This document shows, piece after piece, positions 13,720 through 61,597 of a DNA stretch of 64,000 nt. How positions within the stretch are numbered: the stretch's first letter is position 1; every line of letters starts with the position of its first letter. The notes under the pieces are model-generated. The model was not told where the DNA came from and searched no databases. It saw only the letters and a program-made list of their open reading frames with translations. A program made the position numbers and the translations under genes. The DNA is from a bacterium (GTDB taxonomy: Bacteria > Sumerlaeota > Sumerlaeia > SLMS01 > JAHLLQ01): contig JAHLLQ010000004.1 of the NCBI GenBank assembly GCA_020444065.1, positions 198,662-262,661 on the forward strand, written 5' to 3'.

Positions 13720-14320
13720 TCTCGAAGAGAAGGTCGATTGAACTCACAGTTGCACGGACGATCCCAGAGCTCAAGTCCTCACTGCACAGGATGTCCAGGA
13801 ATCGGATCATAGAAAGGCATGGTAGGGTCCATTCGGAGCAAAACGGCGTCGTTTGGACCGGTCAATCTTTAACAGCCGTGAAAACCGGCGGGCAAAGTGA
13901 GAGCGGAAATTCGAAGAGAAGTGATTTTCCATGCCAAGCGCCTTCGTTTTATCAAAATCCTGCGACGCGGCTTCTTGTCTTACTCAGTTTGAGCGCACCA
14001 AGACTTCATCGTGAAAGATTGATATAATTGGATTTGTGCTGTTTATTTACCGCTTGAGAAACCGCGGGCGAGCAAGCCCTTAACCAGAGGCCTGGGCACC
14101 CGGTTTTTATAAAACGTTTCATTGTATTTTTCCAAATTTTCGGAATTCGAAAGATTAATCGCGTTGCACGTTCGCACCGTTTTTGATTGAAGTGGTCCAA
14201 CGTCAATAAAGGCTTTGCCTGTCGGGGGGAAGCCCAAGTGACGAAATCCAAATTGTCCGAAAAGTCGAGCGTCGCACCGCACCGCATCGCCGGCTCAGAA
14301 GGGCAGAAGGGAAAGTCACC

Positions 14321-15736: not shown

Positions 15737-15796
15737 TCCGCAGGCTTGACTCATGGGGGGACGCTCGGATGCCTCGTTTGAGCGTGTCACCGTGAC

Positions 15797-23520: not shown

Positions 23521-24975
23521 TCAGTTCCCCTGCCCGCGCTGAATCTGCTTGGTCAGGTACCCCACGATGCTCGCCATGTTGGCGTCCGCATCCACGGCCT
23601 TCTTGATCTTGCGGAACGCATAGATCACTGACGTGTGGTCCTTGCCGCCGAATTTCGCCGCGATGTCGGGGAAGCTCAGGTCCGTCAACTCGCGGCACAA
23701 GTACAACGCCAAGTGACGTGGTTGACTGAATTTCTTGGACCTATTGCTGCCCAGCAGCTCTTGCGGCGTAATCTCGAAGTAATCGCACACGCAGCGCTGC
23801 ACGTCCTCGATACTGACCCGGCTCTGGGGCTGGCCGACCATCAGGTGTCCCAACACCTCGCGGGCGGATTCCAGGTTGATCGGACAGTCGTGCAGTCCCG
23901 CGTAGACCTTGATGCGTTTCAGGGTACCCTCCAGCTCACGAATGTTCGACTTCACGCGCTCGGCGATGAACTGCAGCACGTCGCTCGGGATCCGCAGGCC
24001 TTCCTGGCGCGCTTTCTGCCGCAGAATTGCGATTCGGGTTTCGAGGTCCGGCGGCTGGATATCCGCAATCACGCCCCACTCGAAGCGCGACCGCAGCCGC
24101 TCCTCGAGCGTCGCCAGGTCACGCGGGGGGCGATCGCTGGAAAGCACGATCTTCTTCCCGTCGTCGAACAGCGTGTTGAACGTGTGGAACATCTCGTCCT
24201 GCGTGCGTTCCTTTCCCATCAGAAACTGCACGTCATCCAGCAGCAGAACGTCCACATTCCGGTATTGATTACGGAACTCCACCTTGCGGTTCATCTGGAT
24301 GCTCTCGATGAAGCTATTGATGAACTGCTCGGAGCTCGCATACATCACGCGCACCGTGCGGTCGGCCTCGTACAACGCGTGACCGATGGCCTGCATCAGG
24401 TGCGTCTTGCCCAGACCCGACTGTCCGTAGATGAACAGAGGGTTGAAGGCCTGGGAGTTAGAGTCTGCCACGGATTGGGCCGCTGCGTGCGCGTAGCGAT
24501 TGCTTTCGCCCACGACGAAATCTTCAAACCGATACCGGGGATTGATCCGTGGCGGATCCACGACCCGCGGGCTGGGTGCCGAATGCTGGAAGCCTCGGCG
24601 GCCGCCCATCTGGCGGAAATCCACAACGCTGCGGCGGTGAGACATCCCACCGTCGAATGGCGTCTGCTCTTCCGTGGAAGAGGACTCTTCAGTGCTATCT
24701 GTTTTCTCGCGGACGATCAGATCGACGTCCACATTGCGGCCTGCAGCCTCGCTCATGACCGAGCGCAACTGCCGGCCGTATTTTCGTTCAATCCAGTTCT
24801 GGTAAAACTCGCTTGTGACGGACAAGGTCACCCGCTGTGACTCTTCGCAAATTCCATCAAAAGTTATGGGCAATAACCACGCATTATACTCAGCTTCTCC
24901 CACATTTTCGCGCAAGATATCACGAACCCTGTCCCATACATCGGGCGTGATGCGGGTCATGAAAGAGTGTTCCAT
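23521..24975 (-). CDS. dnaA: chromosomal replication initiator protein DnaA
   Basis: Track ORF 484 aa; AAA+ Walker A GQSGLGKTHL; Walker B LLLDDVQF; C-terminal DnaA signature ...KDHTSVIYAFRKI. Confidence 0.95.
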   Translation of the reverse strand: MEHSFMTRITPDVWDRVRDILRENVGEAEYNAWLLPITFDGICEESQRVTLSVTSEFYQNWIERKYGRQLRSVMSEAAGRNVDVDLIVREKTDSTEESSSTEEQTPFDGGMSHRRSVVDFRQMGGRRGFQHSAPSPRVVDPPRINPRYRFEDFVVGESNRYAHAAAQSVADSNSQAFNPLFIYGQSGLGKTHLMQAIGHALYEADRTVRVMYASSEQFINSFIESIQMNRKVEFRNQYRNVDVLLLDDVQFLMGKERTQDEMFHTFNTLFDDGKKIVLSSDRPPRDLATLEERLRSRFEWGVIADIQPPDLETRIAILRQKARQEGLRIPSDVLQFIAERVKSNIRELEGTLKRIKVYAGLHDCPINLESAREVLGHLMVGQPQSRVSIEDVQRCVCDYFEITPQELLGSNRSKKFSQPRHLALYLCRELTDLSFPDIAAKFGGKDHTSVIYAFRKIKKAVDADANMASIVGYLTKQIQRGQGN

Positions 24976-31211: not shown

Positions 31212-34200
31212 ATGGCAACCTTCGCGAATCACCGAAGTCTGGCGTTCAGTTCCCTCATCCTGCTGCTTACTCTCTGTGCCGGGACGGCTTTGGCCGCAAA
31301 GATCCCCGCCAAGGGCATCGAATCCCTGCCCCACGAATACCTGTTCGAGCAGGCCGATAGCCTTCGGTCATTTTCAGATCGGATTGAACTCCAGGGATCC
31401 ATCAACTCTGACGAGTTGCACCTGCTGCGCCGTGCATGGGTGGTTGCCGCTCCTCCGGGAGAGATCGAATACGAGATTCGCAGCCTTACCATCAAAGATC
31501 ACATCACGGGCGTTCCGGTGGAACTGACTTCCGCCGAGGGCATTGACGAGGTCCGGGAGAGCTACGGATTCAGAACTGGTTTCATCGTGGAAGAAATGGG
31601 CATCATGCGAAATGTCCGACTGCTCCGCGTGGTCGTGAACGGCGATGCCCAGATTCTCTACAACAAGCGCAGCTTCTCGCTTCGTCAGTTCGACATCGTC
31701 ATCAAGTTCCCAGAATGGAGCCCAGAGGATGTCTCCAACGGCTCCTTCTCAAGTGAACAAAGCAGCTTGCGCCAGATGCTCGAACAATCGGTCGCGAACC
31801 CCGAGATGCTGGACCTCTACGCGCAGGCAGACCCGCCTGAGACCGAGACAAGCCTGCACGCAAAGTCCGCTTGGCAGCCGCGTCCCGAACTGACAGCGGA
31901 GGACTTCCCTTGGCTGAAGATTCCGATCACCGAGGACGGCTTGTACGCGATCGACGGGCGCTGGCTGTCGGGTCAGGGGCTGGATCCCTCGACGATTGAT
32001 CCGGCATCGCTCTTCCTCGTGAACCGCGGCGAAGAAGTCGCCCTGGTGCAAGCCGGCCCTGAGGGGGCATCGTTCGCCACCGGCGCCCGTCTAATTTTCC
32101 TCGGGCTGAAGAATCACTCCAAAGAAACAAACGAGCGCATCTACTTTCTTGGTCGTCGAGAGACGCCCCAGGAACGTCCCGCTCTCGCCACTGCTGAAGA
32201 TCTCGATGAAGATGCAGAAGTCGAACGCACCTACCGCCGGAAGACGCGCATCGAGGAGGACGTGAACCTCGAAACGCGCGTTGGCAGCTTCCTGAGTATT
32301 CGCGAGATGACATGGGTATGGGATGAATTGCCGCGCGACACGCCGGAGAGTTTCACCTTCGATCTGCAGACCCTTCCATCGTCGGCACCCGCAGCCAAGG
32401 GATCGATCAAGGTCTACTACGCGGGCGTTGGCCTGACCGGCGTTGTGACCCTCGCGGTGAAACTCAATGGCAAGGAACTGGTGCCCGGTGCGACCCTAAC
32501 AAGTCGCCGCAACGTGGTGGATTTCGATATCCCCGAAGGCCTCCTGCAGGTGAACGACAACGTGTTCGAACTCACCATGAAGCAGCCTACGGGCTCGGGC
32601 AATCGCCAGATTCCGCCCATCTATCTCGATTACATCGAACTCGAGCATCAGAGTCTCTTCCGCGCGCACGATGGCCAGCACCTCGCGGACTTCGGCAGCG
32701 AGAAGAGTATCTCCGGCAACGTTCGGCTCGGCGCCGTTGGCTTCCGTCCCTATCGGATGCTGGCAGTGGACGTGACGAAGCCTGAGCAGCCGCTCCGACT
32801 TCCCGTCGTTGAAGGCGAAGGCATCATTTACGTCCTGGCCGATGTCACGCCCGAAACTCGGATTCTCATGATGGAAGACGACGTCGTTCCACGTGCCCCA
32901 GCCGGCGAGCCACTGCATTGGCAGGATTGGCGCGCGCAGGATTCAAGCGCTCAAGTCGTGGTCATCTATCATCCGGATTTCGAAGAGTCCGCACATCGGC
33001 TCGCCGCAGACATCGAGTCCTCCGGACGCGATGTCGTCCTCGCCGATGTAGAAAGCATCTATGAAGCCTACACGGACGGTGAACTGAGTGTCGATGCGAT
33101 CCAGATGTTCCTGCGCGATGCTATCTATCGTTGGGATGGTGAGCGTCCGACTCACGCAATCCTCGTTGGCGATTGCACGAGCGATGGGCAACGCGTTTCG
33201 CGCAACGACGTGATCAACTACGTGCCGACGCATGTGATCGAGGAAGCAGAGACGCATGCGATCGATGAGTACGCGACCGACCAGTACTACGCTTGGCTGG
33301 CCGGCGACGATGAAGTCGCCGATATCATCGTTGGTCGTATCTCCGTGAACAACATCACCGACGCCGACACCGTGGTGGATAAGTCCATCGAGTATCGCCG
33401 GCAAGACCCGTCAATTTGGGCCAGCCGCTTTGTTACGGTCTCCGACCCGGCCGAGTTCGAAAGCGTCTCCTCGATGCTGGTTCACACGTCTGTCGACCCG
33501 TGGTTTGACTACACGGCAATCAATACAGCGGATTATCCCTGGGAGGATAACTTCTACCTGCCGCGGAACTACATCCAGGGCGACGAGATCAAAGTCGCTC
33601 CGGTTGTGACGACGAAGTTGCAGGAAGAAATCGACAGCGGACTCGGCGTCATTTCCTTCTTCGGTCACGGTTCGCCGAATATTTGGTCGAATCAGCGCAT
33701 CTGGTTCGGCGGCGACAGCGAGAACAGCGATAACCTTCGCCTGCGCAACCGCGACCGGCTGGCGTTCATGACGTCGTTCACCTGCAATAATGGTGCGATC
33801 GACTATCCCGTACCGCGTTGGAATGTCTGCATCGCGGAAGACATGATGCGTGTTCCAAAGGGGGGAATGGTGGCGTGCTTCGTACCGTCCGGTCCTGGGT
33901 ACTCCGAGCGCCACTTGCGTCTGGCTGAAGGCTTCTTCCGCACCCTGACGCATTTGAAGGTTCGTGAGTTTGGCCAGGTCGCCGAGATGTCGCGACTCAC
34001 CTATCAGGCCATGCTTGGCTCCGATGATCACGCGCGCATGTTCATCTTCCTCGGCGATCCCACGCTGAAGTTCCCAGCGATCGAGCGCGATGCGGAACTT
34101 TCGATTCGCCCCGACGTCTTGTCGGCGGCCGTTGATCGTCAGCCTATTCGTGCGGCGATGACCACCGAGGAAGAAGAACTGACAACGGGGACGATGATCC

Positions 34201-35738
34201 TTCGCGGCCGCAATGGCCAGGTGATTGCCGAAGGCGAAATGACTCCGGATGGACGTGGCGGCGTTGTCGGTGCCGTGATGGCTGAATTGCCCCGCGACCA
34301 GATGGAGTATCGTCTGATCACGCGAGCGATGGGAAAGAGCGGCGAGCTGTATCGCGCGGGTATGCGAGTCCCTCGCGCGCCCTCGAAGGTCGTCATCGAA
34401 CTGGTCGAAATCGGCGACGTTAGCTATGATCCGCCGTCGCGCGAGTTCACTTACGTTCTCTACAACCAGGGAAACTTCGCGCAGTGGGGTGAGTTGAATG
34501 TCACCCGCCTTCACGACGGAAAACGCATTCAGGCAGGCGTGATTCCATTCGAACTGAAGGCGAAGGAACGCCAGTCCTTCCCGATTAGGCTGGAAGCGCC
34601 CCCCGGAGCTTACGTGATTCAAGCCAATGTGCATCCCTCGCGTACGTACGACTTAAACGAGGAACTTCCCAGCGCGTTGTCGACCGATTGCCTCGTCATT
34701 CCGGACCAGGAGAATCCCGAGGCGGATCTTGTGATTCCGACCGATGCGTTCCGAATTCTTCCTGCGAAGAGCAAGTCCTCCTCGCCATTGGCAGAGACGT
34801 TTATCGCAAACACCGGTGGTAAGCGTCCACGCGCGCGGCTGATTTACCGTGCAGCCTATCCGAATGGCAAAGTCGTGGAAGGCAGCCGGGTGATCGGCTG
34901 GGTCGATCCGGGAAAGGCTGTCCGTTCCACGATCCCAATGCAGATCGAACTCGAAATGACTGCCGATTTGAAAGTTGAATTAATCAGTGAGTCGATGGAT
35001 TTCGAGGATCCGAATCCAGACAATAACTCCCTGACGCGGACGGTTACGGCGGAGTCGATGCCGGACATTCAACTCATTCCCGGCAGCCTGAAGATCTCGC
35101 CCCCGCACCTGGCGGAAGGCGTGACGATCTTCGTTGAAGGTAAGGTCGTCAATCGCGGCCAGACACGTTCTGCAGGTTGCAAGGTTGCGCTCTTCCCGGC
35201 CGGAGACACGGGATTCAACGAGCCTCTGCGCAGCCTGGCCGGACAGAATGGTTCCGACATTCCGCCCCTGCAGCCAGGTTCATCGTGGCCGTTCAAGATT
35301 CGCTGGGATGCCCACGACAATTTGAACGTCGATTCCGTTCAATTACTCCTCGACTCGGATCAGATCCTCGTCGAATCGAACAAACGGAACAACCTCATCA
35401 GCGTGCCACTCGAAATTAAATCGAAGTGGAAACTGGCTCCGCGCGGAATTGCTTTCAAGCAGGATCGCCCGGGTTACTTGACTCTGATCGCGCGTGTCGC
35501 GAACGAAGGCCAAACCGACGCCCGACGCGTGAATGTGATGTTCTATCGAACCACTGACCAGAACGATGAGACCTTCCTCGGCGAAGTGCTCGTCGATCGC
35601 ATCCCCGCCGGCAACATGGCTCTCATCCAGTTCCCATGGAACCTGGAAGGCGAGAACATGCGCCAGAAGGTCCAGCCCAGCTTCAACGTATCGCTGAAGG
35701 GCAGCCTGCAGCGAATCTCGTCGGTCACGGAAGAGTAA
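31212..35738 (+). CDS. giant secreted clan CD cysteine peptidase, gingipain-like (C25-like), with C-terminal CARDB-like repeats
   Basis: Track ORF 1508 aa; signal peptide MATFANHRSLAFSSLILLLTLCAGTALA; putative catalytic His-Gly dyad in FFGHGSP (His codon 33666..33668) and Cys in SFTCNNG (about 33783..33785); C-terminal Ig-like/CARDB-like repeats. Family call from motif memory. Confidence 0.7.
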   Translation: MATFANHRSLAFSSLILLLTLCAGTALAAKIPAKGIESLPHEYLFEQADSLRSFSDRIELQGSINSDELHLLRRAWVVAAPPGEIEYEIRSLTIKDHITGVPVELTSAEGIDEVRESYGFRTGFIVEEMGIMRNVRLLRVVVNGDAQILYNKRSFSLRQFDIVIKFPEWSPEDVSNGSFSSEQSSLRQMLEQSVANPEMLDLYAQADPPETETSLHAKSAWQPRPELTAEDFPWLKIPITEDGLYAIDGRWLSGQGLDPSTIDPASLFLVNRGEEVALVQAGPEGASFATGARLIFLGLKNHSKETNERIYFLGRRETPQERPALATAEDLDEDAEVERTYRRKTRIEEDVNLETRVGSFLSIREMTWVWDELPRDTPESFTFDLQTLPSSAPAAKGSIKVYYAGVGLTGVVTLAVKLNGKELVPGATLTSRRNVVDFDIPEGLLQVNDNVFELTMKQPTGSGNRQIPPIYLDYIELEHQSLFRAHDGQHLADFGSEKSISGNVRLGAVGFRPYRMLAVDVTKPEQPLRLPVVEGEGIIYVLADVTPETRILMMEDDVVPRAPAGEPLHWQDWRAQDSSAQVVVIYHPDFEESAHRLAADIESSGRDVVLADVESIYEAYTDGELSVDAIQMFLRDAIYRWDGERPTHAILVGDCTSDGQRVSRNDVINYVPTHVIEEAETHAIDEYATDQYYAWLAGDDEVADIIVGRISVNNITDADTVVDKSIEYRRQDPSIWASRFVTVSDPAEFESVSSMLVHTSVDPWFDYTAINTADYPWEDNFYLPRNYIQGDEIKVAPVVTTKLQEEIDSGLGVISFFGHGSPNIWSNQRIWFGGDSENSDNLRLRNRDRLAFMTSFTCNNGAIDYPVPRWNVCIAEDMMRVPKGGMVACFVPSGPGYSERHLRLAEGFFRTLTHLKVREFGQVAEMSRLTYQAMLGSDDHARMFIFLGDPTLKFPAIERDAELSIRPDVLSAAVDRQPIRAAMTTEEEELTTGTMILRGRNGQVIAEGEMTPDGRGGVVGAVMAELPRDQMEYRLITRAMGKSGELYRAGMRVPRAPSKVVIELVEIGDVSYDPPSREFTYVLYNQGNFAQWGELNVTRLHDGKRIQAGVIPFELKAKERQSFPIRLEAPPGAYVIQANVHPSRTYDLNEELPSALSTDCLVIPDQENPEADLVIPTDAFRILPAKSKSSSPLAETFIANTGGKRPRARLIYRAAYPNGKVVEGSRVIGWVDPGKAVRSTIPMQIELEMTADLKVELISESMDFEDPNPDNNSLTRTVTAESMPDIQLIPGSLKISPPHLAEGVTIFVEGKVVNRGQTRSAGCKVALFPAGDTGFNEPLRSLAGQNGSDIPPLQPGSSWPFKIRWDAHDNLNVDSVQLLLDSDQILVESNKRNNLISVPLEIKSKWKLAPRGIAFKQDRPGYLTLIARVANEGQTDARRVNVMFYRTTDQNDETFLGEVLVDRIPAGNMALIQFPWNLEGENMRQKVQPSFNVSLKGSLQRISSVTEE

Positions 35739-35740
35739 GC

Positions 35741-37012
35741 ATGTCTCGTCGCTTCGCACACCTGCTTCTGATTTGCTTGATCGCAATCACCGCGATTGGA
35801 TGTTCCCGCGCGAAGCGCGATGCGAACCTGAAAGCCAACGCACCGACAGGAACGGCGGAGTTCGGTCTTTGGGTTCAGCCGGAGACGGCAGCCGAGTCTT
35901 TCCAGACTGTGGCAGAGGCGACGGCCTTCTTCGATGACCTGAAAGAGCAAAAGGTTTCGACGGTCTTTCTTCAGGTCAAAGATCGCCAGGGCGATGTGAT
36001 CTTCGCAACGAAGCACGCGGCCGCCATTCCTGGTGCAGAGCATCTGCTCGCAAACGCCGCGCGGGGGGCGAACGCGGCCGGTGTCCAATTGATCGCCGCC
36101 TATCCAGTCTTTGTGGGCAATCCTCGGCCCGGTGAGGAACTCATCGAATACACTTACGATGAGTCGGCTGGTCATGCACGCGTCCAACCACGCGAATCAG
36201 GTCCGCTACCGCGTCTGAATCCATCCATCCGCGCTGTCCGCGACCGAGAACTCGCCATCCTGCGAGAGCTGGCTGCTGTGCCTGTAGATGGATTCTGTCT
36301 GACGCATGCCGGCTATCCGGGAAGTCAGGCGGACTTCTCCGACGAGGCGCGCGCGGGTTTCGAAGCCGCCATGGCCCGTCCTGTCAAAGTCTGGCCGGAT
36401 GATATCTTGGGCTTCCGCCCGGGCGAGCATCGCCCCGTCGCAGAGCCAGGGGATTTGTGGGAAGCGTGGGTTTCCTGGCGCGCGAGTCTGTTGCGCGACT
36501 TCCTCTTCCAGGCTCAGGGGGCGTTGACTGTCGGCACGGAAGTTCGTCGGCCAGTGCTCATCATGGCCGAGGGCTACTACCCCCTGCATTACCGCCAGGG
36601 TGTGAACTGGGCCAGCCCCGCCGCCTCCGTGCAGAAGGCCTTTCCATCGGCTCCGCCACGCTACGGCGGAACCGGTACCGGGGCGATCTTCGACGGCGTC
36701 GTGTTGGAGCTGCTGGCTCCGATCCCAACGATCGAGGAAGCGGTCGCCAACGAGATGGCCTGGTGGTCGAGCGCCGAGGGGGCCTCCCGACTGGCATCCG
36801 AGCTATTGCCGCCCGACGCCACGCGATGGGCGGCGGTCACGCCGATGCCCTTCGCGGATTCAGAGGGTAACCTGAGCAGTGGCGCGCGCGAGGCCTTCCT
36901 GCGCTCCACACACGAATGCGCCCGGGCGAACCCGGGCGTACTGGTACTTGACCTGGACTACATGAATGGCTGGGGCCTGTGGGCGGATGTTCAGGGCGCG
37001 CTGGCGCGCTAA
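35741..37012 (+). CDS. lipoprotein, possibly glycoside-hydrolase-like family 10 (GHL10/DUF187-like) TIM-barrel protein
   Basis: In-frame ATG 35741 two nt after the protease stop; lipobox LIAITAIGC; resemblance to GHL10 is tentative. Confidence 0.55.
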   Translation: MSRRFAHLLLICLIAITAIGCSRAKRDANLKANAPTGTAEFGLWVQPETAAESFQTVAEATAFFDDLKEQKVSTVFLQVKDRQGDVIFATKHAAAIPGAEHLLANAARGANAAGVQLIAAYPVFVGNPRPGEELIEYTYDESAGHARVQPRESGPLPRLNPSIRAVRDRELAILRELAAVPVDGFCLTHAGYPGSQADFSDEARAGFEAAMARPVKVWPDDILGFRPGEHRPVAEPGDLWEAWVSWRASLLRDFLFQAQGALTVGTEVRRPVLIMAEGYYPLHYRQGVNWASPAASVQKAFPSAPPRYGGTGTGAIFDGVVLELLAPIPTIEEAVANEMAWWSSAEGASRLASELLPPDATRWAAVTPMPFADSEGNLSSGAREAFLRSTHECARANPGVLVLDLDYMNGWGLWADVQGALAR

Positions 37013-41181: not shown

Positions 41182-42639
41182 ATGTTCCCTCACCGCCGCC
41201 TGTTGCTCGCGCTGCTCTGTTTGCCGGCGTTGACGACCTGCACACACGCCCAGGTTTTGCTCAACGGTTCCCACAAATTCGTTACCTCGGATGAGAACGA
41301 GATGTTCATCGACCCCCGTCGAGCGGTTGATCGATCCGATTGTGGACAGATCGCCTTCGTTTCTTACGAGGCCCTGCAATACACCTTCCATCGCCTGCTA
41401 CTCTACGAAACCTTCGAAGGCGGTGGGGCAGGCGAGGTGACCGAACTGCCGAGAGGTTTCAACACCGAAGCCGACGCTGCCTATGATTCCGACTGCAGGC
41501 TGTTCGTCTATCTCGCCAGCGGATCCCAGACGGAGACCCGTATCCGCCAGGATGACGGCGCTTTCCTTACTTTCGAGAGGAATCTAGCCATCCCCGACTT
41601 CACGGGTGCCGCCTACAATCTGTTGGACTTTTTTCGCGGAGAAGACGGCAATCTGCACGCGGTGCACTTCGCCTATCGGTTTGTTCGAGACGGACGGGCC
41701 TCTGAGAAGCGCCTGATTTGGGGCACCTGGCGCAACGGAGCTTGGGAGGACCGCGTTATCAGTGACTACAGCGGCACGATCTTCGGCCCGCTGGACGCGG
41801 CTGTGAATGCATATGGGCATCTCTATGTGCTGGCCGATCCGCCGAGTTCCCACAGCTACTCCGAGGATCTGTTCTTCAATGTGTACTCGCCGGAGTTGTC
41901 GACATCGGAGAACGTTCGGCCCGCGCCGGGGATGGATTTCCATCCGTTGGAGGCAAGCCTTGCCCTCGGTCCCAATGGCGAGATCTCCATCGCTGGAACA
42001 TTCATGCAGACCGTCGAGACCGGATCGCCCACTTACATCAACCTTCGTTACTTACGGCGCACCGGGGACAATCAGTGGAACGAGACGTCCATCGCGACAA
42101 GCGACGACGACTATCACGGCAGCGACGGCAGCAATTACACGGGCCGCCGGCCACTGCTTGAGTATGACGAAAGCGGAGGTTTGCATCTCGCCTTCAGCGA
42201 TCATTCGAACTGGCATAATCCCTACAGCGAATCCGAGATTGGCCAGGTGCGTTACGGTTATCTTCCGCCAGGGGGAACTGCCTGGACGCTGACAACGGTC
42301 TTCCGTCAGCCTGGGCGCTCTGCCAGTCCAGACCCGTTGCACGGCTTTCGCCTTGGCGGACTCGCGCCTTCTCCCAGCGGCCGCCGCGCAAACATCTTCG
42401 GCGCCGAGCGAATCGTCGTGTACAACAACGACCCCTTCGCTGCGCCCGACATCGTGACCATGAATGGTCTGCAATTCGATGTTCAGAACACTCAGGCTGC
42501 CTCCGTTGCTGCGCCCAATTACGCCGTGCTGAACTGGCTGCTCGGCCGGCCGTTCGCTGGGGGTGCCCCAGCGGATGGAAACGGCGACGGTGCACTTGGC
42601 TCTGCGGATTTGATCGGAACGATCGCACTGGAGCCCTAG
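41182..42639 (+). CDS. secreted hypothetical protein with C-terminal dockerin/EF-hand-like Ca-binding motif
   Basis: Track ORF 485 aa; signal peptide MFPHRRLLLALLCLPALTTCTHA; C-terminal ADGNGDGALGSADLIGTIA motif; divergent from the TetR gene. Confidence 0.6.
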   Translation: MFPHRRLLLALLCLPALTTCTHAQVLLNGSHKFVTSDENEMFIDPRRAVDRSDCGQIAFVSYEALQYTFHRLLLYETFEGGGAGEVTELPRGFNTEADAAYDSDCRLFVYLASGSQTETRIRQDDGAFLTFERNLAIPDFTGAAYNLLDFFRGEDGNLHAVHFAYRFVRDGRASEKRLIWGTWRNGAWEDRVISDYSGTIFGPLDAAVNAYGHLYVLADPPSSHSYSEDLFFNVYSPELSTSENVRPAPGMDFHPLEASLALGPNGEISIAGTFMQTVETGSPTYINLRYLRRTGDNQWNETSIATSDDDYHGSDGSNYTGRRPLLEYDESGGLHLAFSDHSNWHNPYSESEIGQVRYGYLPPGGTAWTLTTVFRQPGRSASPDPLHGFRLGGLAPSPSGRRANIFGAERIVVYNNDPFAAPDIVTMNGLQFDVQNTQAASVAAPNYAVLNWLLGRPFAGGAPADGNGDGALGSADLIGTIALEP

Positions 42640-44144: not shown

Positions 44145-46127
44145 GTGCTGCTTCTGCTCTTCGATGCTCTAGCCTCACTGATTGCCGGCCGCGTCGCCGC
44201 GGGGTGGGTGTTTTCCGATGAGGAAACGCCCGACCGGCTGACGCTTTGGCTGCTGTGGTCGATCAGCTTTTTCCTCCTAACCCCATTGGCAATTGGAACC
44301 ATTGCCGGCTCGCTGACGGTGAAGTCATTGTACGTTGGTTTCAGTATTCTGACTGTGGCCGCGATCATCGCGCACATCGCGATCGGTCGACGCCTGACGT
44401 CCTGGAAATACGACAAGGTCGGTCTCGGCGATTCAATCCTGCTGGCCTGGGGGCGCGAGATTCTCGGCGCCTCGTGGAAGGCGCGCTTCGCGTGGGCGAT
44501 CGTTGTCCTTTGGGTGCTTGGCATGTCGGCGCCCGGTTGGTTTCTGACGCCGCGCACTTGGGACGCCGTCGAATGCTACATGCTGCAACCCGTCGATTAC
44601 CTTCCGCCGCACGAGTTCTCGCTGTCGCTTCCGTTGCCTGGCGGCCCCGAGCAGTACCGTACGCTCGGCGAGACGTTCCCGAACCTGAAGGGCTTCTGGG
44701 CCATCCAGGTGATGCTCGGGCGGGACTCGATGAAGGGCGCCGGCCTCGCACAAGTTCCGTTCCTGTTCATCGCTCTCGTGGCCCTGTGGGGGATCGGACG
44801 GCGACTCGAATTGCCCGCCTGGACGACGGCCGTTGGGGCGTTCTTTCTGATCTCAATGCCGGAGGTCATGCTGCAGTCGACTGAGCTCTACACTGACGTC
44901 CAGACCAGTTCGACATTGCTGATCGTCTTATGGGCCTTGACCGGCCTGGATCGCGAGGCCTTCCCGCGCCGCTGGATTGTCGTCGCCGGCCTGGCCTTCG
45001 GACATCTGGCCGCCGCAAAAGCGTCTCTCCTGATCACCGGCGGCCTTCTTGGGCTCCTGGCCGTGGGGCTGGCGATGCATCGCGCCGGCAAAGGGAAACG
45101 CATCCAGTTCGGCGCGTTGATGCTCGCATCTGGCCTTATCGGAGGAGTCGTTCTTGCGGGGCCGTGGCTGCTTCGAGGAGCCATCGTCTACCACAACCCA
45201 ATCTACCCGATTTCGGTATCCGTCGGCGATCACATGATTCTTCCAGGGACCGGACCAGCAAGTCTGAATACCGGTGTCCTGATGAGTCAGACTGGCTTGA
45301 CGGAATCGCAGGCCTACTTGAACTCGGCCCTCGAAGGCGGAGGAATTACGCATCTTGGGTTCATCGCGGGCGGGTGGGGACCACAGGGCCTGGTTTTCGG
45401 ACTGCCCGCTCTCATCCTGCTGGCAGTGCTGGGATTTCGAAGGAACGCGACGCGCTGGCGCCTCATCCTCGCAGTTGTTGCGCTCGTCATTCTGGGTTCG
45501 CCGGATCTCTGGTGGCCGCGTTTCGGGCTCCAGGTTCTTATCTTTGCAACCGTCGGCGTGGCTGCATGGATGGCACTGGCAGACCGTTGGCAGCGTATTC
45601 TCCTGATGATGCTCCTGATCGTGTTCGCAGGCTGGAATGGGCTGCGCGTTGTCCCATCGATCCTCTTCCGCTGCTATGAACCCATCATACTGGCCTATCC
45701 ATTCATTACTGGCGACCCGATCCCCCTTTTGGAGGAACATCGTCCCGACGAGTTCGCCGCGCGTGACTTTGCCCGTGAAATAGCCGGCTCTGATCCAGGC
45801 GTTCGCATGGCATACATTGGCGATGCCACATACAGGATGCCGCCCATTCGGCTAATCCCCGATGAAATGCGCAACCCACTGGTTCCAACCGGTCGGATTG
45901 AAGACACCGATGGGCCGGAAGCGTGGATGGCCGATCTTCTCGATTCGGAAGCGACTCATATCATCCTGCCATTCGGGCGCCCCGAAGGTCGGCTACTCGA
46001 CGAGCATCCAGAGCATTTCCAGTCATTGTACCGGGATCGTCCCTGGCGAGCGGAGCACCCCTGGGGACCTTCGCAGTATCCACGCGAAGCGGTCTGGGCC
46101 ATTCAGCGGGAGGGCGCCGATGAATAA
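44145..46127 (+). CDS. large polytopic membrane protein (660 aa), function unknown; possibly GT-C-like glycosyltransferase
   Basis: Track ORF from GTG 44145; more than 10 hydrophobic helices plus a C-terminal soluble region; GT-C idea is inference only. Confidence 0.65.
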   Translation: MLLLLFDALASLIAGRVAAGWVFSDEETPDRLTLWLLWSISFFLLTPLAIGTIAGSLTVKSLYVGFSILTVAAIIAHIAIGRRLTSWKYDKVGLGDSILLAWGREILGASWKARFAWAIVVLWVLGMSAPGWFLTPRTWDAVECYMLQPVDYLPPHEFSLSLPLPGGPEQYRTLGETFPNLKGFWAIQVMLGRDSMKGAGLAQVPFLFIALVALWGIGRRLELPAWTTAVGAFFLISMPEVMLQSTELYTDVQTSSTLLIVLWALTGLDREAFPRRWIVVAGLAFGHLAAAKASLLITGGLLGLLAVGLAMHRAGKGKRIQFGALMLASGLIGGVVLAGPWLLRGAIVYHNPIYPISVSVGDHMILPGTGPASLNTGVLMSQTGLTESQAYLNSALEGGGITHLGFIAGGWGPQGLVFGLPALILLAVLGFRRNATRWRLILAVVALVILGSPDLWWPRFGLQVLIFATVGVAAWMALADRWQRILLMMLLIVFAGWNGLRVVPSILFRCYEPIILAYPFITGDPIPLLEEHRPDEFAARDFAREIAGSDPGVRMAYIGDATYRMPPIRLIPDEMRNPLVPTGRIEDTDGPEAWMADLLDSEATHIILPFGRPEGRLLDEHPEHFQSLYRDRPWRAEHPWGPSQYPREAVWAIQREGADE

Positions 46128-55388: not shown

Positions 55389-55739
55389 ATGGAATTGGAT
55401 CCCAAGGAACTGCGCCAGATCTTTGTAGATGCCTTGGAGGAGTGGTTTGGGCCGGCGCACCAGAAACTGGGCGGACGGTGGCACGGCGGGAAGATGATCC
55501 TGCAGCCCGAGAACGAATCCCTGAAAGCCAAGGAACTCGACGTCGAGGTCTTCTTTCACAAGATCGTGATGATGCGCGAGTCCCTCCGCGTGTTGGAGCA
55601 GAAGATTAACAATCACCCAAAGCTGGATGACGAGGATCGCCTCGTGCTGCAGCAGTACATCACGCGCTGCTACGGCACGATGACAACCTTCAACGTGCTG
55701 TTCCGCGATGAAGAGGATCGCTTCGCCGGCCAGCGCTGA
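55389..55739 (+). CDS. hypothetical protein (116 aa)
   Basis: Track ORF; RBS GAGGAGAGAAA before ATG; no family recognised. Confidence 0.55.
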   Translation: MELDPKELRQIFVDALEEWFGPAHQKLGGRWHGGKMILQPENESLKAKELDVEVFFHKIVMMRESLRVLEQKINNHPKLDDEDRLVLQQYITRCYGTMTTFNVLFRDEEDRFAGQR

Positions 55740-55769
55740 TTGCCTTTCATTTCCCCCAGGAGGGCATTG

Positions 55770-56966
55770 ATGGAAACCCTGACAAAGACTGAGTGCTCCG
55801 CTTTTCTGCTGAAATCAAACCTGACCGTGGACTCGCTCGTCGATCTGGCCATTGGTCGACTCGAGCAGTTCGTTCCTGGCGGAGTCGAAATCACGACTGA
55901 TGCCGACAAAGCGGACGTCGTGCTCGTTTGCAGCGGAGGCGTGGAGGGCGACTACATCCGCTTACTCGAAGGCGCCACCATCCCGCCCGTCATTCTGGCC
56001 GGTGCGGAAGCGAACGCCTTTGCCGCCGCGACGGAAATCTGCGCGTATGCCCGTTGGCGCGGGCGCTCCGTGCTCTTTGAGCCACTGGCGGAGGAGAATC
56101 ACGAGCAGGTTCGCCAGGCAATCGCCGCGGCACGTGCCGCGCGCAAGTTGCGCCAATCGGTCCTCGGCATCATTGGAATGCCCTCTGCATGGCTAGTCGC
56201 ATCGATCCCCAGCGAGTCCGCCATCCGCGATCGCATCGGCGTGCGGCTGGAGCGCATCCCCTGGTCGAACGTGCCGATCGATCTGACGCCGGACAAGTCA
56301 GAGGAAAGCCCTTGGCGGGACGCTCCGCGGCACACGCACGAGGTCAGCGAGGACGCACTTGAGCGCGCGCTGGCGTTCAGTCGGAATCTGCGCCGATACG
56401 TCCGCAGCAAGCAACTCGACGCTGTTGCCGTCGAGTGCTTCTCGTTGCTGAAAACTCACCACGTCAGCGGTTGTCTCGCGCTGGCCGACTTGCTTGAAAA
56501 CGGCCTGCCGGCTTCCTGCGAAGGCGATGTTTGCAGTGCACTCGGGATGATGTTTGCACAGGCTGCATTGCCCGACGACGTGCCGTTGCCTTGGATGGCC
56601 AACATGACGTTCCGCACCGGCAATCGATTCTGGTTCTCACATTGCACCGTGCCGCCCGGAAATGTGAAGTCCGTCGAACTGCGGACGCACTTCGAAAGCG
56701 ACAGCAGCGTCGCGATTCACGGGACGTATGAAGAAGGGTCGACGGTTACGCTGTTGCGCCTAGCAGCGGACTTGAAGACAGCCTATCTGACTCGCGGCGT
56801 GATCGCGAGCGCCGAAGCGGTCGAAACGCGTTGCCGCACACAAATCGCTGTCGACGTCGAAGCGCAGCCCACCGAGATCCTCGGCAATCACCATCTCCTC
56901 ATCAGCGGAGACCAGACGATGCCGCTCGAGATGTTGCTGAAGCTGCTCGGATTCCGCCTGGTGTAG
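55770..56966 (+). CDS. hypothetical protein (398 aa), possibly sugar-isomerase-like
   Basis: ATG 55770 behind RBS AGGAGGG, in frame with track ORF 55740..56966; protein-like composition; family not recognised with confidence. Confidence 0.6.
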   Translation: METLTKTECSAFLLKSNLTVDSLVDLAIGRLEQFVPGGVEITTDADKADVVLVCSGGVEGDYIRLLEGATIPPVILAGAEANAFAAATEICAYARWRGRSVLFEPLAEENHEQVRQAIAAARAARKLRQSVLGIIGMPSAWLVASIPSESAIRDRIGVRLERIPWSNVPIDLTPDKSEESPWRDAPRHTHEVSEDALERALAFSRNLRRYVRSKQLDAVAVECFSLLKTHHVSGCLALADLLENGLPASCEGDVCSALGMMFAQAALPDDVPLPWMANMTFRTGNRFWFSHCTVPPGNVKSVELRTHFESDSSVAIHGTYEEGSTVTLLRLAADLKTAYLTRGVIASAEAVETRCRTQIAVDVEAQPTEILGNHHLLISGDQTMPLEMLLKLLGFRLV

Positions 56967-56992: not shown

Positions 56993-57033
56993 GCCGGCCT
57001 GTCGAGTGAGTTCGACAGGCCGGCTTCTTTGTT
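56993..57033. terminator. bidirectional intrinsic terminator between convergent genes
   Basis: 13-bp perfect stem GCCGGCCTGTCGA / TCGACAGGCCGGC, loop GTGAGT; T-rich on both sides (TTCTTTGTT on plus; reverse strand ATTTTTCCC). Confidence 0.75.
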
Positions 57034-57040
57034 ACACTCT

Positions 57041-60000
57041 TTAGTGGAACATCCACCCGCGCGGTGCCGGCGTGTCCGGATCTCCAGCCAGCACAAAGAT
57101 GCCGTAGTCGGTCATCGGCGCGCTGACTTCGCCGCGCTCTTCGATGTGATGCGATGTCAGGGCATCCCAACTCGAAGTGGTTTCATTCCACTTGAACAGC
57201 CCCAACGTTGATGGATCGACTCGATAGAGCGGATCGACGTACTCGGAGTACGTGATCATCACGCCCGTCTTGCCGGCGATGGGACTGTCGTCTGCACTGA
57301 CGATGCGATATGGGCCACGCACAACGTTCTTGCCGGCCGGCGCGGGGCGCGTCACCTCCGTAATGCTCAGGACCGTCCCGGAAGGAATGGCACCGGCCGT
57401 GCCGAAGATACGCAGTGGATCGCCCGACGCCCCCCAATGGATTTCGGCGCTGTCATCGTTGAACGGCACGAAGTGGAACGTGCTCATGATGTCCAACTGC
57501 TCGCCTTCCCAGTCGACCGTCTCCACGACGACGGATCCACTCGGCGCATCGGCATCCCACAGCGACGTCTCTGCCGTGTAGGCACTCTCCCCGGCGTTCC
57601 ATTCAAGATCGATCGTCTTCACCCAGCCGTCCAACTGCTCGGTGCGAATTGTTGCGCGGGGCGGTTCGCTCAGCTCTTCGCTCGACGTGAGGCTGACAAG
57701 CATGAGCGTTACCGTTGTGCCCGGCGACACATCAAGTGCCAGTTCCCGATCCGGCGTCAGCATGCGCTTCTTTGCCCGATCGGGTGCACCACGTGCGCTC
57801 TCCGTCAACGTGCGCGCCCCGTATCGATCATCCGGAAGATCGAAGTAATGCAGCACAGGCTCATCGGCCCCCTCGATCACTTCCAGGATCACGGCGCGGT
57901 CCGAGGGCCAAATATTGTGCAACGTCGTGTAGCCGTAATCATCGGTCGCCATCATGGAGAGCGATGAGCCGTCGGCGTGCTCAAGCAACACAGAGCGTTT
58001 GTCCCACGGCGTACTGTCCGCCTTCAGGAAGCGGAACGTGCCGCCGTAGCCGTAGTAACTCGGTGTGTCGAAGATGTAGACGCGGTCCCAGGCATCGCAC
58101 GGAAGCTCATCGGGCCCCGGCACATGGCCGCCTCGTTCCTCCGGGCGTGTCAGAAGCCAGCGCTGGTAATGCGTCGGCCGAAGGAAATCATTGAGGTTTT
58201 CCTTGATCGTCTCCCAGCACGGCTCGTTGCGATATCGCTCCTGCGCCGTCTCGTGATTGTGAGCATTACCAGTGCCGTCGTCGCAGAAATTGTACGCGGC
58301 GCCCTGGTTGTCCATCACGCAGGCCGAGAGCGGACCGTGAGCTGCAAAGGGAGATTCTTCATCGAGGCGTTGCAGCGTGCAGTTCGAATCGTCGCAGTAC
58401 CACAGATCGTCACTGTAGTGCGTGATGTATTCATCGTAGAGATTCAGCGCGTAGTGCCCCATCTCGTGGATGAAGGTACGATGGTCCGTGATGGCAGCGA
58501 ATTCCATGTTGTTCCAGGAGTACCGTGAATATAGCCCATTGATGTTGGCATTCGCTCGGTAGTTTCGGAAGTGAATGCGCCCATCGCCGCCATCGTCCCA
58601 GAACGACCGATTCTCGTACAACTCAACCAGCTCAAGGAACATCTGTCCGTCGCTGACGTTGTAGAAGTAATCGCTCGCCCGTTCGATCTGGTGGCGCATA
58701 TACTCCCAGTAGATGCCATCCGGATTCCAATCCGTTGCCATCACAAGATGGAAGCCGATCAGTGGATTGCGCCGTTCCAGCACCAGGTCCATCGGGCTGC
58801 CCATATCGCTGACGATGTGCCCTGTCATCTCGCCGTCATCGCCAATGGTGATGTTTGTCAAGTACACGTGGTATGCCCAAGGCGAACCGCCGAGTTCTTC
58901 ACGATCTCTCCGATCGGATTCTTTCGTGTAGACCTTGTAGAGCGCCGTAATGCGATCGCCGATATAGACATCGGGAACGCGAATGGCACCGGCGGCATTC
59001 GTTTCGCCCACGTAGTCGTCATTGTGATAGACCTTCGCGCCGGCGCGTGCTTCGAACGTCGGAGAATCGCCCAAATGCGGAATCTCGACTTCGATGTTCA
59101 CGCCGAGATCTCTCTCGAATCGAGTCGAGCGCCAACCCGTCATCGTTGAACTGTGTCCGACATTATCGTGGAACTGGGCGGCGATCTGGTATTCCGTGTT
59201 CACGTCTGGAGGAGTAAAGAAGACAGTCTGTTCCGGCGCGTGATCGTAGTAGATCCCATACTCCGTCCATTCCGTCATCCCGGCTTCGCGGAAGAAAAGC
59301 TGCCAGTAGTTCAAGCCGCTGCCGCGGTCGCCAATGTCGAAGACTTCCACACGGACGCGGCTTCCCGTGTCATCGTCCGGCGTGGCGTAGATCAGTCCAC
59401 CTGGTGGGAACACATCGACGCGCAGGGGATCGGAGTGCGCGATGTCCGACAGGTTCCCCGCTCGATCTACAGTGACGGCATGCAGGTACCACGGTTCCGT
59501 CCAGTCGTACCCTTCGGTTGTGTCGGAGAATCGGACGCCCTCGTAGTAAATTCCTGCGGACGGATCGGATGTCGGATTGTGCGTGATCAAGTAGCGCATC
59601 CCCACAGCGTCTGTGAAACCATCATCGCCACGCGTGATTGAGAAGGTGGTGTGCGCGTTTGCCCAGTCGGGCCAACTGACGTACCCATCCAGATGGAAGG
59701 TCGGGGGATCCGGCCGGTGCGTGTCGATGTAGAACGGCCCGTCTCGCAATGTCCCGACCGAGATATTGCCGGCGTTGTCGACGGCTCGCAGGTGGATGTA
59801 CCAGTCCGTCGCATCGGCAAGCTCTTCGGTCATTTGCAGACGCGCACCCATGCTGAATTCCGTCACGTCATCCGGCTCGGTGTCGGGATTCTGATCCACG
59901 ACCACGGAATAGCCTGCGATGCCGCTGTGCGCATCTTCGCTGGCCGGCCACGAGTACCGAATCTGATCGATCTTGCTCCACGGCCCCCAGGCATTCGGCT

Positions 60001-61483
60001 CATGCCGGAATGTGTACAGCAGCGATGGCAAGCCCGGCGGCTCCATATCGATTCGCACGGTGTACTCGGGACTGTGGCCAACGTTGCCGGCCGCATCTTC
60101 GATGTGGAATCGAATCCGATAGTTGCTACCGTTTGAATCGAAGGCTGCCACTGTTGTGGAAAGAAGTGCGTGGCTTTCGTCCGATGAGATGACTTCATCG
60201 ACGGGCGCAGTCGTGCTCCATGAGCCGCCGCTGTCGGTGGAGTACTCGAAGGTCGCTGTGCCCGTGGAAAGCTCGACGTTATCTTCCACCAGTACCGAGC
60301 AAGTTGGTGCTGTGTATGTCAGCCAACCGTCCGGTCTGAAGTCCGCCCATCCCGCGGGCGGTGCGCCGTCCTGGCTGTAGAAAAGGCGCACAACCTTCTC
60401 GTTTTCGATGGCAATCATATCAGGCCAGACATCGTTATCCAGGAACTCAAACGATGAGCGCGTAAACTTGTTTCCATCGCCGACCTTCACCGCCTCCTTG
60501 GGGGCGCCCCACTTCTCAACGTCCTCACCGCTCAGGATGAAGAGACTGTCATTGGTGGTTCCGAGAATATCGTAGTGCCCATCGCGGTCGTGATCCATGA
60601 CCGAGAGCCACTTGTAAACATAGCTCTTTTCGGAGTGAACGAGTTCCCACGGATCCGTTGCCCGATTCATCAGAATCAGCAACGTCCCATCCCCATCCAG
60701 AGCATACAGATCCATGTAGCTGTCCTTGTTGAAATCGAAGGACCAGCACATCGTGATTCCCAGGTCCTGAGGCAAGTTCTTGCGATCGACGATCCACGTT
60801 GGATCATCGTATCGAAAGAGAAAGAGGGCGCCGGTCGAATCCACGCACATGGCATCGTGGAAGCCGTCCTTCTCAAAGTCGCCGACGGCCAGCCACTTCA
60901 CAGACAGACCACTTGTGTCGCCCACCGTCCGATCCCAGCCGCCACCTCCGCCGCCCGGGACGAACTTGAAGATGTCTACGCCCTCCGCGCTCGGCGGAGA
61001 CGCAAACACCACGGGCATCGTATCGCCATTGATGTAGCCGAAATCCAGCGTCGAGTAATTCATCGCGGGCGACATGGGGTAGGACTTCAGCCAGCCGTTG
61101 TTCTCCCACTTGCAGAAGTGGATGCCTTCGGTGGTTTTGCTGAGGAAGAATGCCTCCTCGTGATCGTCCAGGTCGATGTCGCGCAGGAAGATGTTGGAGA
61201 AGGTCGGCCAACCCGGGATATCGGCCGTCGTCGCATCCGTCCATGTCGCGCCGCCATCGCCAACGAAGTACATGGCGCCGGCCCCGGTCCCTTCCGCCGC
61301 GAGCATCAGATCCGTATCATTGTCGTCATCGGGATCCGCGGCGTCGTAGCCCTGTCCGGAGAGCCCGTGCCCGGTCTGCTCCGTCCACGAGATCTGCGCA
61401 GTGACGGGCGCAATAAACAAGAATGCGGCGCAGCACAAGAGCGCCAGTCGACGGGAAACCCCCGTCAAAAAAGTCAATTCCAT
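57041..61483 (-). CDS. giant secreted zinc metalloprotease with N-terminal FG-GAP/VCBS-like beta-propeller repeats and Ig-like domains (possibly M6 / InhA-PrtV-like)
   Basis: Track ORF 1480 aa; signal peptide; FG-GAP-like repeats (VGDFEKDGFHDAMCVDSTGALFLF, FDFNKDSYMDLYALDGDGTLLIL, MDHDRDGHYDILGTTNDSLFIL); zinc-binding HEXXH in TFIHEMGHYALNLYDEY. Confidence 0.75.
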   Translation of the reverse strand: MELTFLTGVSRRLALLCCAAFLFIAPVTAQISWTEQTGHGLSGQGYDAADPDDDNDTDLMLAAEGTGAGAMYFVGDGGATWTDATTADIPGWPTFSNIFLRDIDLDDHEEAFFLSKTTEGIHFCKWENNGWLKSYPMSPAMNYSTLDFGYINGDTMPVVFASPPSAEGVDIFKFVPGGGGGGWDRTVGDTSGLSVKWLAVGDFEKDGFHDAMCVDSTGALFLFRYDDPTWIVDRKNLPQDLGITMCWSFDFNKDSYMDLYALDGDGTLLILMNRATDPWELVHSEKSYVYKWLSVMDHDRDGHYDILGTTNDSLFILSGEDVEKWGAPKEAVKVGDGNKFTRSSFEFLDNDVWPDMIAIENEKVVRLFYSQDGAPPAGWADFRPDGWLTYTAPTCSVLVEDNVELSTGTATFEYSTDSGGSWSTTAPVDEVISSDESHALLSTTVAAFDSNGSNYRIRFHIEDAAGNVGHSPEYTVRIDMEPPGLPSLLYTFRHEPNAWGPWSKIDQIRYSWPASEDAHSGIAGYSVVVDQNPDTEPDDVTEFSMGARLQMTEELADATDWYIHLRAVDNAGNISVGTLRDGPFYIDTHRPDPPTFHLDGYVSWPDWANAHTTFSITRGDDGFTDAVGMRYLITHNPTSDPSAGIYYEGVRFSDTTEGYDWTEPWYLHAVTVDRAGNLSDIAHSDPLRVDVFPPGGLIYATPDDDTGSRVRVEVFDIGDRGSGLNYWQLFFREAGMTEWTEYGIYYDHAPEQTVFFTPPDVNTEYQIAAQFHDNVGHSSTMTGWRSTRFERDLGVNIEVEIPHLGDSPTFEARAGAKVYHNDDYVGETNAAGAIRVPDVYIGDRITALYKVYTKESDRRDREELGGSPWAYHVYLTNITIGDDGEMTGHIVSDMGSPMDLVLERRNPLIGFHLVMATDWNPDGIYWEYMRHQIERASDYFYNVSDGQMFLELVELYENRSFWDDGGDGRIHFRNYRANANINGLYSRYSWNNMEFAAITDHRTFIHEMGHYALNLYDEYITHYSDDLWYCDDSNCTLQRLDEESPFAAHGPLSACVMDNQGAAYNFCDDGTGNAHNHETAQERYRNEPCWETIKENLNDFLRPTHYQRWLLTRPEERGGHVPGPDELPCDAWDRVYIFDTPSYYGYGGTFRFLKADSTPWDKRSVLLEHADGSSLSMMATDDYGYTTLHNIWPSDRAVILEVIEGADEPVLHYFDLPDDRYGARTLTESARGAPDRAKKRMLTPDRELALDVSPGTTVTLMLVSLTSSEELSEPPRATIRTEQLDGWVKTIDLEWNAGESAYTAETSLWDADAPSGSVVVETVDWEGEQLDIMSTFHFVPFNDDSAEIHWGASGDPLRIFGTAGAIPSGTVLSITEVTRPAPAGKNVVRGPYRIVSADDSPIAGKTGVMITYSEYVDPLYRVDPSTLGLFKWNETTSSWDALTSHHIEERGEVSAPMTDYGIFVLAGDPDTPAPRGWMFH

Positions 61484-61597
61484 GTCCTCAACCCTCCTGG
61501 ACAGACTTTTCGAGCTTGCTTTGATTTGTAGAAGGAAGTGTGTGGCGGAGGGACAGAAGTGTCAATCGAAGTGCCCCACGGATAGTGCAATCGAATA

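Follow-up and report, generated by a model that had tools for sequence, protein, structure and literature searches.

The window analysed here is a stretch of 64,000 nucleotides of contig JAHLLQ010000004.1 (assembly GCA_020444065.1, positions 198,662 to 262,661 of the forward strand) from an uncultured, Sumerlaeota-like bacterium. On the minus strand, an open reading frame (ORF) at 57041..61483 with an ATG start encodes a protein of 1480 amino acids (aa), and this putative secreted metalloprotease is the subject of the present analysis. The protein is homologous to CLCA_N (PF08434, MEROPS M87, 'CLCAsins') over the whole metallohydrolase domain. An earlier note on this DNA had proposed the same ORF, and its coordinates and length were reproduced exactly. 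The translated sequence is identical to MCB2155651.1, named 'hypothetical protein KQI84_12260 [bacterium]' and encoded on a contig of 431,957 bp. The features of the gene and its product are listed in Table 1.

Table 1. Features of the 1480-aa protein, its gene and a second protease gene in the window
Feature	Residues (aa)	Position	Strand	Basis or remark
Complete coding sequence, 1480 aa + stop codon		57041..61483	-	identical to MCB2155651.1
Shine-Dalgarno sequence AGGAGG, ATG 9 nt downstream		61493..61498	-	read directly from DNA
Signal peptide (MELTFLTGVSRRLALLCCAAFLFIAPVTA, followed by Q)	1-29	61397..61483	-	sole hydrophobic segment of the protein; cleavage site inferred
Seven-repeat FG-GAP (integrin-alpha-like) beta-propeller	31-377	60353..61393	-	PF13517, repeats and profile matches
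About four tandem Ig-like (Big_3_2/Big_13-type) units	378-792	59108..60352	-	boundaries approximate; fourth unit divergent
Transthyretin/CarboxypepD_reg-like beta-sandwich	~809-880	58844..59059	-	always precedes the catalytic domain
Predicted metzincin-type catalytic domain of the CLCA/igalysin 'DEY' kind	~900-1145	58049..58786	-	
Predicted zinc-binding motif HEMGHYALNLYDEY	1006-1019	58427..58468	-	conservation, CLCA1 alignment, predicted active-site helix
Met-turn and metal/disulfide region	1035-1090	58214..58381	-	C1035, C1055, M1057, C1067, H1075, C1089, W1090
C-terminal beta-sandwich D1 (transthyretin-like)	1146-1230	57794..58048	-	
Disordered basic linker RGAPDRAKKRMLTP	1231-1244	57752..57793	-	pLDDT <50, model residues 86-99
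C-terminal beta-sandwich D2 (Ig/FnIII/CBM56-like)	1246-1342	57458..57748	-	
C-terminal beta-sandwich D3 (ZU5-like topology)	1343-1472	57068..57457	-	followed by 8-aa tail (...PRGWMFH)
Bidirectional intrinsic-terminator-like hairpin		56993..57024	either	between the protease gene and convergent ORF 55740-56966
1508-aa protein: signal peptide, Peptidase_C25 (gingipain-family, E 1.6e-66) and CARDB		31212-35738	+	

Gene and domain organisation

Since the orthologue P0003 aligns from residue 1, the assigned start codon is supported. Just past the stop codon, the terminator-like hairpin has a 14-bp stem with 10 GC pairs and carries T-runs on both strands. The signal peptide is of the Sec type and ends with a VTA/Q cleavage-type site, which bears out the earlier description of the protein as secreted. 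All relatives also begin with a signal peptide or a lipobox.

The region of aa 31-377 is made up of seven repeats of ~48 aa. On aa 1-375, PF13517 (FG-GAP_3) scores 41.1 bits against a cut-off of 26.9, in 5 stretches. A self-BLAST of the 1480-aa protein did not find internal repeats; the propeller repeats were registered by motif and by Pfam. A propeller profile built from ten orthologues of the protein was compared to solved FG-GAP propellers, and matches the secreted esterase 8w20 (E 3e-14), CRTAC1 (2e-10), integrin alpha-V and alpha-6 (E about 2e-6) and the propellers of YenB and ITFG2. Judged from these profiles, the proposed identity of the N-terminal repeats as an integrin-like FG-GAP propeller holds. 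Like the propellers of the integrin-alpha, CRTAC1 and ITFG type, the one described here has seven FG-GAP repeats with Asp-rich loops. Unlike these, it is fused upstream of a protease core, and several of its blades have degenerate D-x-D-x-D-G loops.

Ig-like domains had likewise been predicted and were confirmed. In unit 1, Big_3_2 (PF12245) matches aa 432-479 with 26.7 bits (cut-off 23.3), and the Ig-like region is 28-43% identical to tandem repeats of the protein P0002. Similarity is also seen between units 2 and 3 (E 2e-8), and a D-x-A-G-N motif is common to units 1-3.

Next, the distribution of the protease was considered. An exhaustive HMMER search of 1.84 billion representatives (clusters at 50% identity) retrieved 706 clusters with E<=1e-3, of which 363 have E<=1e-10 and 67 have E<=1e-30, aligned over ~aa 814-1140. 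Word-indexed searches were nearly empty, with 2 matches for the whole protein and 4 for the family alignment, and the family is seen by HMMER only. Based on loci from species-representative genomes, it occurs mainly in Chloroflexota, and also in Acidobacteriota, Armatimonadota, Planctomycetota, Myxococcota, Actinomycetota (including a Streptomyces isolate), Bacteroidota and others. For the protease domain, the closest relative that carries a name is from Ca. Sumerlaeota. Every family member named in its source is labelled 'hypothetical protein', and this large bacterial family is left unannotated by Pfam and NCBIfam.

Between the HEXXH motif and the C-terminus the distance hardly varies (quartiles 450/463/483 aa), and among untruncated members D1 is detected by HMM in 113/119, D2 in 101/119 and D3 in 116/119. 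Therefore, the conserved core is a unit of ~660 aa (aa ~809-1472) that consists of a beta-sandwich, the metzincin domain and three further beta-sandwiches. D3 ends 11-30 aa from the C-terminus across members and holds an invariant tryptophan (W1439, alignment position W294). The linker of aa 1231-1244 is not conserved in alignment A2.

The N-terminal extension is variable, with quartiles of 342/588/975 for the motif position. The additions differ by lineage and include propellers (FG-GAP, LVIVD, PD40), Ig-like repeats and CBMs, and the propeller and Ig modules of the 1480-aa protein are such a lineage-specific addition. The arrangement of propeller, Ig-like units and core is kept end to end in P0003 and P0004 (44-45% identity) and in P0156, P0009, P0010, P0011 and P0014 (27-30%), some of which have an extra propeller. 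The short members are lipoproteins whose lipobox is immediately followed by the first beta-sandwich, so there is no room for a prodomain. Igalysins and CLCA1 are likewise without a prodomain.

The C-termini of the family show two further patterns. In 44/156 family proteins, [VI][YF]LP[LVF][IV]x[RK] stands in the last 8-12 residues (e.g., ...RVYLPLVMR and ...KVFLPFIQR). The carriers lie among P0010-P0151, for example P0060, P0098, P0055 and P0036, and the motif is absent from the 1480-aa protein. It looks like a sorting or processing signal, matched to no known one. In the subgroup of the 1480-aa protein, a Pro-rich linker and then a short aromatic tail (..WRSYQ, ..WRLY, ..GWMFH) form the C-terminal end instead.

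Predicted catalytic domain and its relation to CLCA and igalysins

The sole HEXXH of the protein lies within HEMGHYALNLYDEY. From the composition of the protein, a chance HEXXH is expected ~0.09 times per 1480 aa. The motif alone proves little, and its significance comes from its near-invariance in 150 related proteins. Among the best 150 of the 706 related clusters, to which the counts in this paragraph refer, both H1006 and H1010 are kept in 150/150 and E1007 in 149/150, with HQxxH in a single member. The other positions are similarly constrained: D1017 is kept in 147/150, Y1019 in 146/150, C1035 in 147/150, M1057 in 149/150 and W1090 in 148/150. Overall, nearly all of the 150 carry the signature HExGHYxLxLxD[E/S]Y, and the Tyr after the second His (HExxHY) is present in 93%.

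These counts bear on the idea of a catalytically dead pseudo-protease, in which a pure surface adhesin or binding protein would have kept a metzincin-shaped module. According to Lenart et al., many members of the CLCA family have substituted active sites, and binding-type domains (propeller, Ig-like units and beta-sandwiches) dominate the 1480-aa protein. With all its catalytic residues intact and these almost invariant in the relatives, such a loss of activity is very improbable.

The extended zinc motif HEMGHYALNLYD supplies the putative third metzincin ligand, D1017, and, like that of M64 and CLCA, is one residue longer than the general form HExxHxxGxx[H/D]. The form common to M64 igalysins and CLCA is HExxHxxxxLxDEY / HExxHxxxGxxDEY, and the M6/M7 form HExxHxxGxxD is one residue shorter. 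The M6/InhA-like spacing given in the earlier note is thus not the one observed. A metalloprotease of the M6 type, similar to immune inhibitor A, would still be a metzincin with an HEXXH motif; considering the longer motif and the lack of a match to the M6 profile (PF05547), there is little chance that the protein belongs there.

Based on an alignment of 24 sequences, aa 805-1150 were modelled by AlphaFold2 (pLDDT 87, pTM 0.88). In order, the model has the beta-sandwich (~aa 809-880), a long strand, a helix at aa 923-943 (alphaA), more strands, a helix at aa 1001-1013 with HExxH (alphaB), a loop region with M1057 and a helix at aa 1089-1097 (alphaC). This is the twisted beta-sheet with alphaA, alphaB and alphaC of the metzincin fold, and the Met-turn is accounted for in sequence by M1057, which is aligned to Met238 of CLCA1. 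A Foldseek search against the PDB returned metzincins for all of the top 50 matches (igalysins, MMPs, ADAM/reprolysins, ADAMTS-5 and BMP1), all of them weak (E>=5e-3). Fold-comparison values were 9.5 for ADAMTS-5 and CpaA, 9.3 for ADAM8, 9.1 for ulilysin, 8.1 for mirolysin, 7.6 for InhA2, 7.1 for pappalysin, 6.6 for archaemetzincin and Amuc_1438, and 6.3 for IgA protease. A metzincin fold is therefore predicted for the HEXXH region with high confidence. The metalloprotease region proposed earlier stands in this respect, while its placement at the C-terminus does not: the domain lies inside a five-domain core that continues for ~335 aa of beta-sandwiches.

Regarding the closest family, a PF08434 search of the 1480-aa protein itself gave no match even at E<=10. 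Among 24 members, PF08434 matches 9, covering profile positions 14-80, 128-149 and 188-251. Member P0020 passes the threshold (32.9 vs 25.6 bits) and eight further members are sub-threshold; P0020 is 33% identical to the catalytic domain of the 1480-aa protein (E 3e-41). When compared to human CLCA1 (aa 22-317) in HHalign, the family profile gave 96.5% probability (E 1e-9) over 182 columns. The CLCA1 sequence used agrees with all 16 residue numbers in the cryo-EM preprint on this protein. With the control, a presumed MMP-3 sequence, the same family profile gave 3.7% over 34 columns.

The CLCA1 alignment spans the first sheet strand (betaI) to alphaC and keeps the residues of the catalytic centre, the Met-turn and the second site in register. 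It pairs H1006/E1007/H1010 with H156/E157/H160, D1017-E1018-Y1019 with D167-E168-Y169, M1057 with M238 (Met-turn), C1067 with C250 and H1075 with H255. As described in the cryo-EM preprint, H156, H160 and D167 of CLCA1 bind the catalytic zinc with Y169 nearby, Met238 forms the Met-turn, and a second zinc is bound by E168, C187, C250 and H255. A link between the two groups is found in P0158, a metagenomic protein of 803 aa in which the CLCA-like domain HEMGHHVWGLGDEY is directly followed by a VWA domain, the canonical CLCA arrangement. P0158 scores 97.8% with the family profile in HHalign, and bridges the protease family and CLCA.

Igalysins (M64, PF09471) were compared as well, with the IgA protease of Thomasclavelia ramosa, BACOVA_00663 (3p1v) and BF3526 (4df9) as examples. 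The motif spacing HExxHxxxxLxDEY is identical in the 1480-aa protein, including the Leu (L1015). Both groups are bacterial and secreted, without a prodomain. In M64, too, a beta-sandwich (PF16217) precedes the catalytic domain. In the sequence searches, PF09471 did not match the 1480-aa protein, and P0003 gave E 0.0086 over the motif only. Similarly, the profile matched the M64 structures 9ekk, 9qdh, 3p1v and 4df9 over ~26 residues, again the motif only (E 0.04-0.6).

Other metzincins are further away. Sequence homology of the 1480-aa protein to ADAM/ADAMTS (M12B) and CpaA (M72) is not detectable; these proteins have different ancillary domains, a prodomain with a Cys switch and His as the third ligand, where the 1480-aa protein has Asp. 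Immune inhibitor A likewise gave no profile match. CLCA_X (HExxHxxxD), which is phage- or plasmid-borne, was rejected as a candidate because the spacing of the third ligand differs and the gene lies in a context of chromosomal housekeeping genes.

The additional metal site is traced by covariation. C1067 and H1075 co-occur in 89/89 cases (Fisher p 6e-40) and pair solely with the DEY motif, never with DSY (Fisher p 7e-20); DSY members carry a Cys at position 1076 instead. C1055, two residues before the Met of the Met-turn, and C1089, the first residue of alphaC, co-occur in 44/44 cases (p 1e-18), again solely in DEY proteins. The full set of E1018, C1035, C1067, H1075, C1055 and C1089 is present in the 1480-aa protein. 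The E-C-C-H tetrad has the residue types of the second zinc site of CLCA1 (E168/C187/C250/H255), and the covariation suggests a CLCA1-like structural zinc, with E1018, C1035 (or another Cys), C1067 and H1075 as probable ligands. In igalysins, the second zinc is bound by the Glu of DEY and three Cys, which lie at Met-2, directly before alphaC and in its first turn. Of these, the 1480-aa protein has C1055 (Met-2) and C1089 (start of alphaC), which recall the second-zinc cysteines of M64, and the third Cys is absent. This second pair probably forms a disulfide that ties the Met-turn to alphaC; it also recalls two of the three second-site cysteines of igalysins and archaemetzincins.

Several observations weigh against a CLCA-type metzincin. 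Pfam and NCBIfam gave no peptidase family for the whole protein or for aa 786-1250 at E<=10, and a PDB sequence search with the same two queries gave no match. The alphaB-alphaC segment has ~75 aa, not the 118 of CLCA1, and the disulfide-rich (three-disulfide) thumb is missing. Unlike in CLCA, no VWA domain was found in the 1480-aa protein by Pfam or NCBIfam. Moreover, the CLCA1 counterpart of C1035 is ambiguous, being C210 by hhalign and C187 by spacing. The two groups also differ in their surroundings. CLCA has VWA, BSR, ID and FnIII domains after the catalytic domain where the 1480-aa protein has three unrelated beta-sandwiches; and the transthyretin-like sandwich before the catalytic domain, the family-specific Tyr of HExxHY and the bacterial host all set the latter apart. 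Taken by its alignments, the protease family is a group of divergent prokaryotic CLCA/igalysin-like metzincins, classed as a putative sister group of CLCA_N and not as a member of PF08434 because it falls below the Pfam criterion and is without the CLCA thumb and VWA.

Proposed function, export and genomic setting

The best explanation, which we consider likely, is that the 1480-aa protein acts as a secreted endopeptidase, a metzincin of the 'DEY' type known from CLCA and igalysins, with propeller and Ig modules that would target it to a macromolecular substrate. It would be a multi-domain zinc metalloendopeptidase exported by Sec, with aa ~900-1145 as a catalytic unit of the type common to eukaryotic CLCA (M87) and bacterial igalysins (M64). 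As in the homologous CLCA1, the catalytic zinc would be bound by H1006, H1010 and D1017, the water would be activated by E1007 as general base, and Y1019 would act as stabiliser. M1057 would form the Met-turn under the metal. With a structural zinc probably placed on the E-C-C-H residues named above, the presumed stoichiometry would include this second zinc, and the C1055-C1089 disulfide would probably fasten the Met-turn to alphaC. The most likely role of the propeller and the approximately four Ig-like domains is to bind a macromolecular substrate or surface ligand or to hold it in position. As CLCA1, igalysins, CpaA and Amuc_1438 have been described to act on O-glycosylated substrates, a glycoprotein might be the substrate here too, which is only a guess by analogy.

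The most serious rival is a CLCA-like self-processing, auto-inhibited design. Here the metzincin would mainly cleave its own chain, e.g., at the basic linker of aa 1231-1244, the C-terminal sandwiches would serve as intramolecular inhibitor or chaperone, and the protein would be a regulated adhesin or remodelling factor, not a bulk protease. The catalytic domain is homologous to that of CLCA1, in which an inhibitory domain at the C-terminus blocks the cleft and contains the autocleavage site, and the prodomain that most metzincins need is missing. D1-D3 accompany the catalytic domain at a near-fixed distance in about 85-97% of untruncated members, D1 and D2 are separated by the low-confidence basic linker, and an N-terminal propeller with Ig modules is typical of adhesion proteins. 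However, D1-D3 match beta-sandwiches generically and are not homologous to BSR, ID or FnIII of CLCA, the linker is unconserved, and igalysins, also without a prodomain, are ordinary trans-acting proteases. On balance, self-processing and a role as regulated adhesin are both rather unlikely, and an endopeptidase acting on a macromolecular substrate is preferred.

The final location of this endopeptidase may be the periplasm, the cell surface or the medium. For export, the 64-kb window supports Sec-dependent translocation, as read from the signal peptide, and no step beyond the inner membrane. A lone pseudopilin gene had been noted before as the only sign of a secretion apparatus. A crude regular-expression search of the six frames of the window detected no canonical prepilin site (G-F-[TS]-L-[IV]-E and then a hydrophobic stretch). 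Neither did the 1480-aa protein, the C25 protease or the other large ORFs have a common C-terminal sorting tail. None of the secretion terms looked up occurs in a published Sumerlaeota genomics study.

The second protease of the window, previously described as a gingipain-like protein of 1508 aa, was recovered as such, with Peptidase_C25 and CARDB domains. An ORF at 35636-37012 with a weak DUF4985 match overlaps the 3' end of its gene by ~100 nt.

The neighbours of the 1480-aa gene are housekeeping genes. AccD and SppA are encoded upstream on the same strand, followed further away by an MFS transporter, PBP1, Obg and HldE, and tRNA synthetases, DnaA and an ABC-transporter cluster are encoded elsewhere in the window. 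The CysS of the window is closest to proteins named Sumerlaeia or Candidatus Sumerlaeota (66% and lower); a single match of 68% bears the label Poribacteria but comes from a contig of 3.4 kb. No conserved partner gene or secretion partner was found at 3 orthologous loci, which have unrelated neighbours, so the protease gene stands alone. Two adjacent ORFs, 55389-55739 (+, 116 aa) and 55740-56966 (+, 408 aa), converge on the gene, have no Pfam match and use the bidirectional terminator in common with it.

In the ABC-transporter cluster, DUF4340, ABC_transp_aux, an ABC-2 permease and an ABC ATPase are co-oriented at 16051-21108 (-). The cluster presumably resembles a gliding-associated ABC system of the GldA/F/G type, and we take ABC_transp_aux to be GldG-like. 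The dnaA gene lies at 23521-24975 (-), and the window may be near the replication origin; the cumulative GC skew has a shallow local low at ~44-46 kb and is still falling toward the window end, with no sharp switch. Large ORFs without a Pfam match were seen at 4476-7214 (-), 10572-12266 (-), 14006-15790 (-), 41182-42639 (+) and 44145-46127 (+). Some of these coincide in part with ORFs of the other strand and are possibly not genes. The N-terminus encoded by 41182-42639 resembles a signal peptide or lipobox.

Implications for CLCA evolution and the host

In the published view, the prokaryotic homologues of CLCA are rare imports from animals. The breadth of the family sits awkwardly with this view. 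A tentative and rather doubtful alternative is that the proteins form an extensive and ancient family of bacterial CLCA-type metzincins that has gone almost unannotated, with at least 706 clusters, many of which have a CLCA1-style E-C-C-H site. If true, the animal CLCA metallohydrolase domain would have arisen within bacteria, which would reverse the transfer from Metazoa to prokaryotes proposed in the literature and would be at odds with describing CLCAsins as eukaryotic. In that case, the three-domain module conserved at the C-terminus might be the bacterial counterpart of the intramolecular regulation of CLCA.

Human CLCA1 is a disease-relevant mucus protease, and the bacterial family would give CLCA a prokaryotic context. 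Its members would serve as tractable models of the unusual double-metal site, and hundreds of large environmental 'hypothetical proteins' would gain a functional label. For the uncultured, Sumerlaeota-like host, the protein would be a large secreted protease besides the C25 peptidase encoded 21 kb away. A protein-scavenging lifestyle has been suggested in the literature for the phylum Sumerlaeota, and an added secreted protease together with the C25 peptidase would fit this lifestyle.

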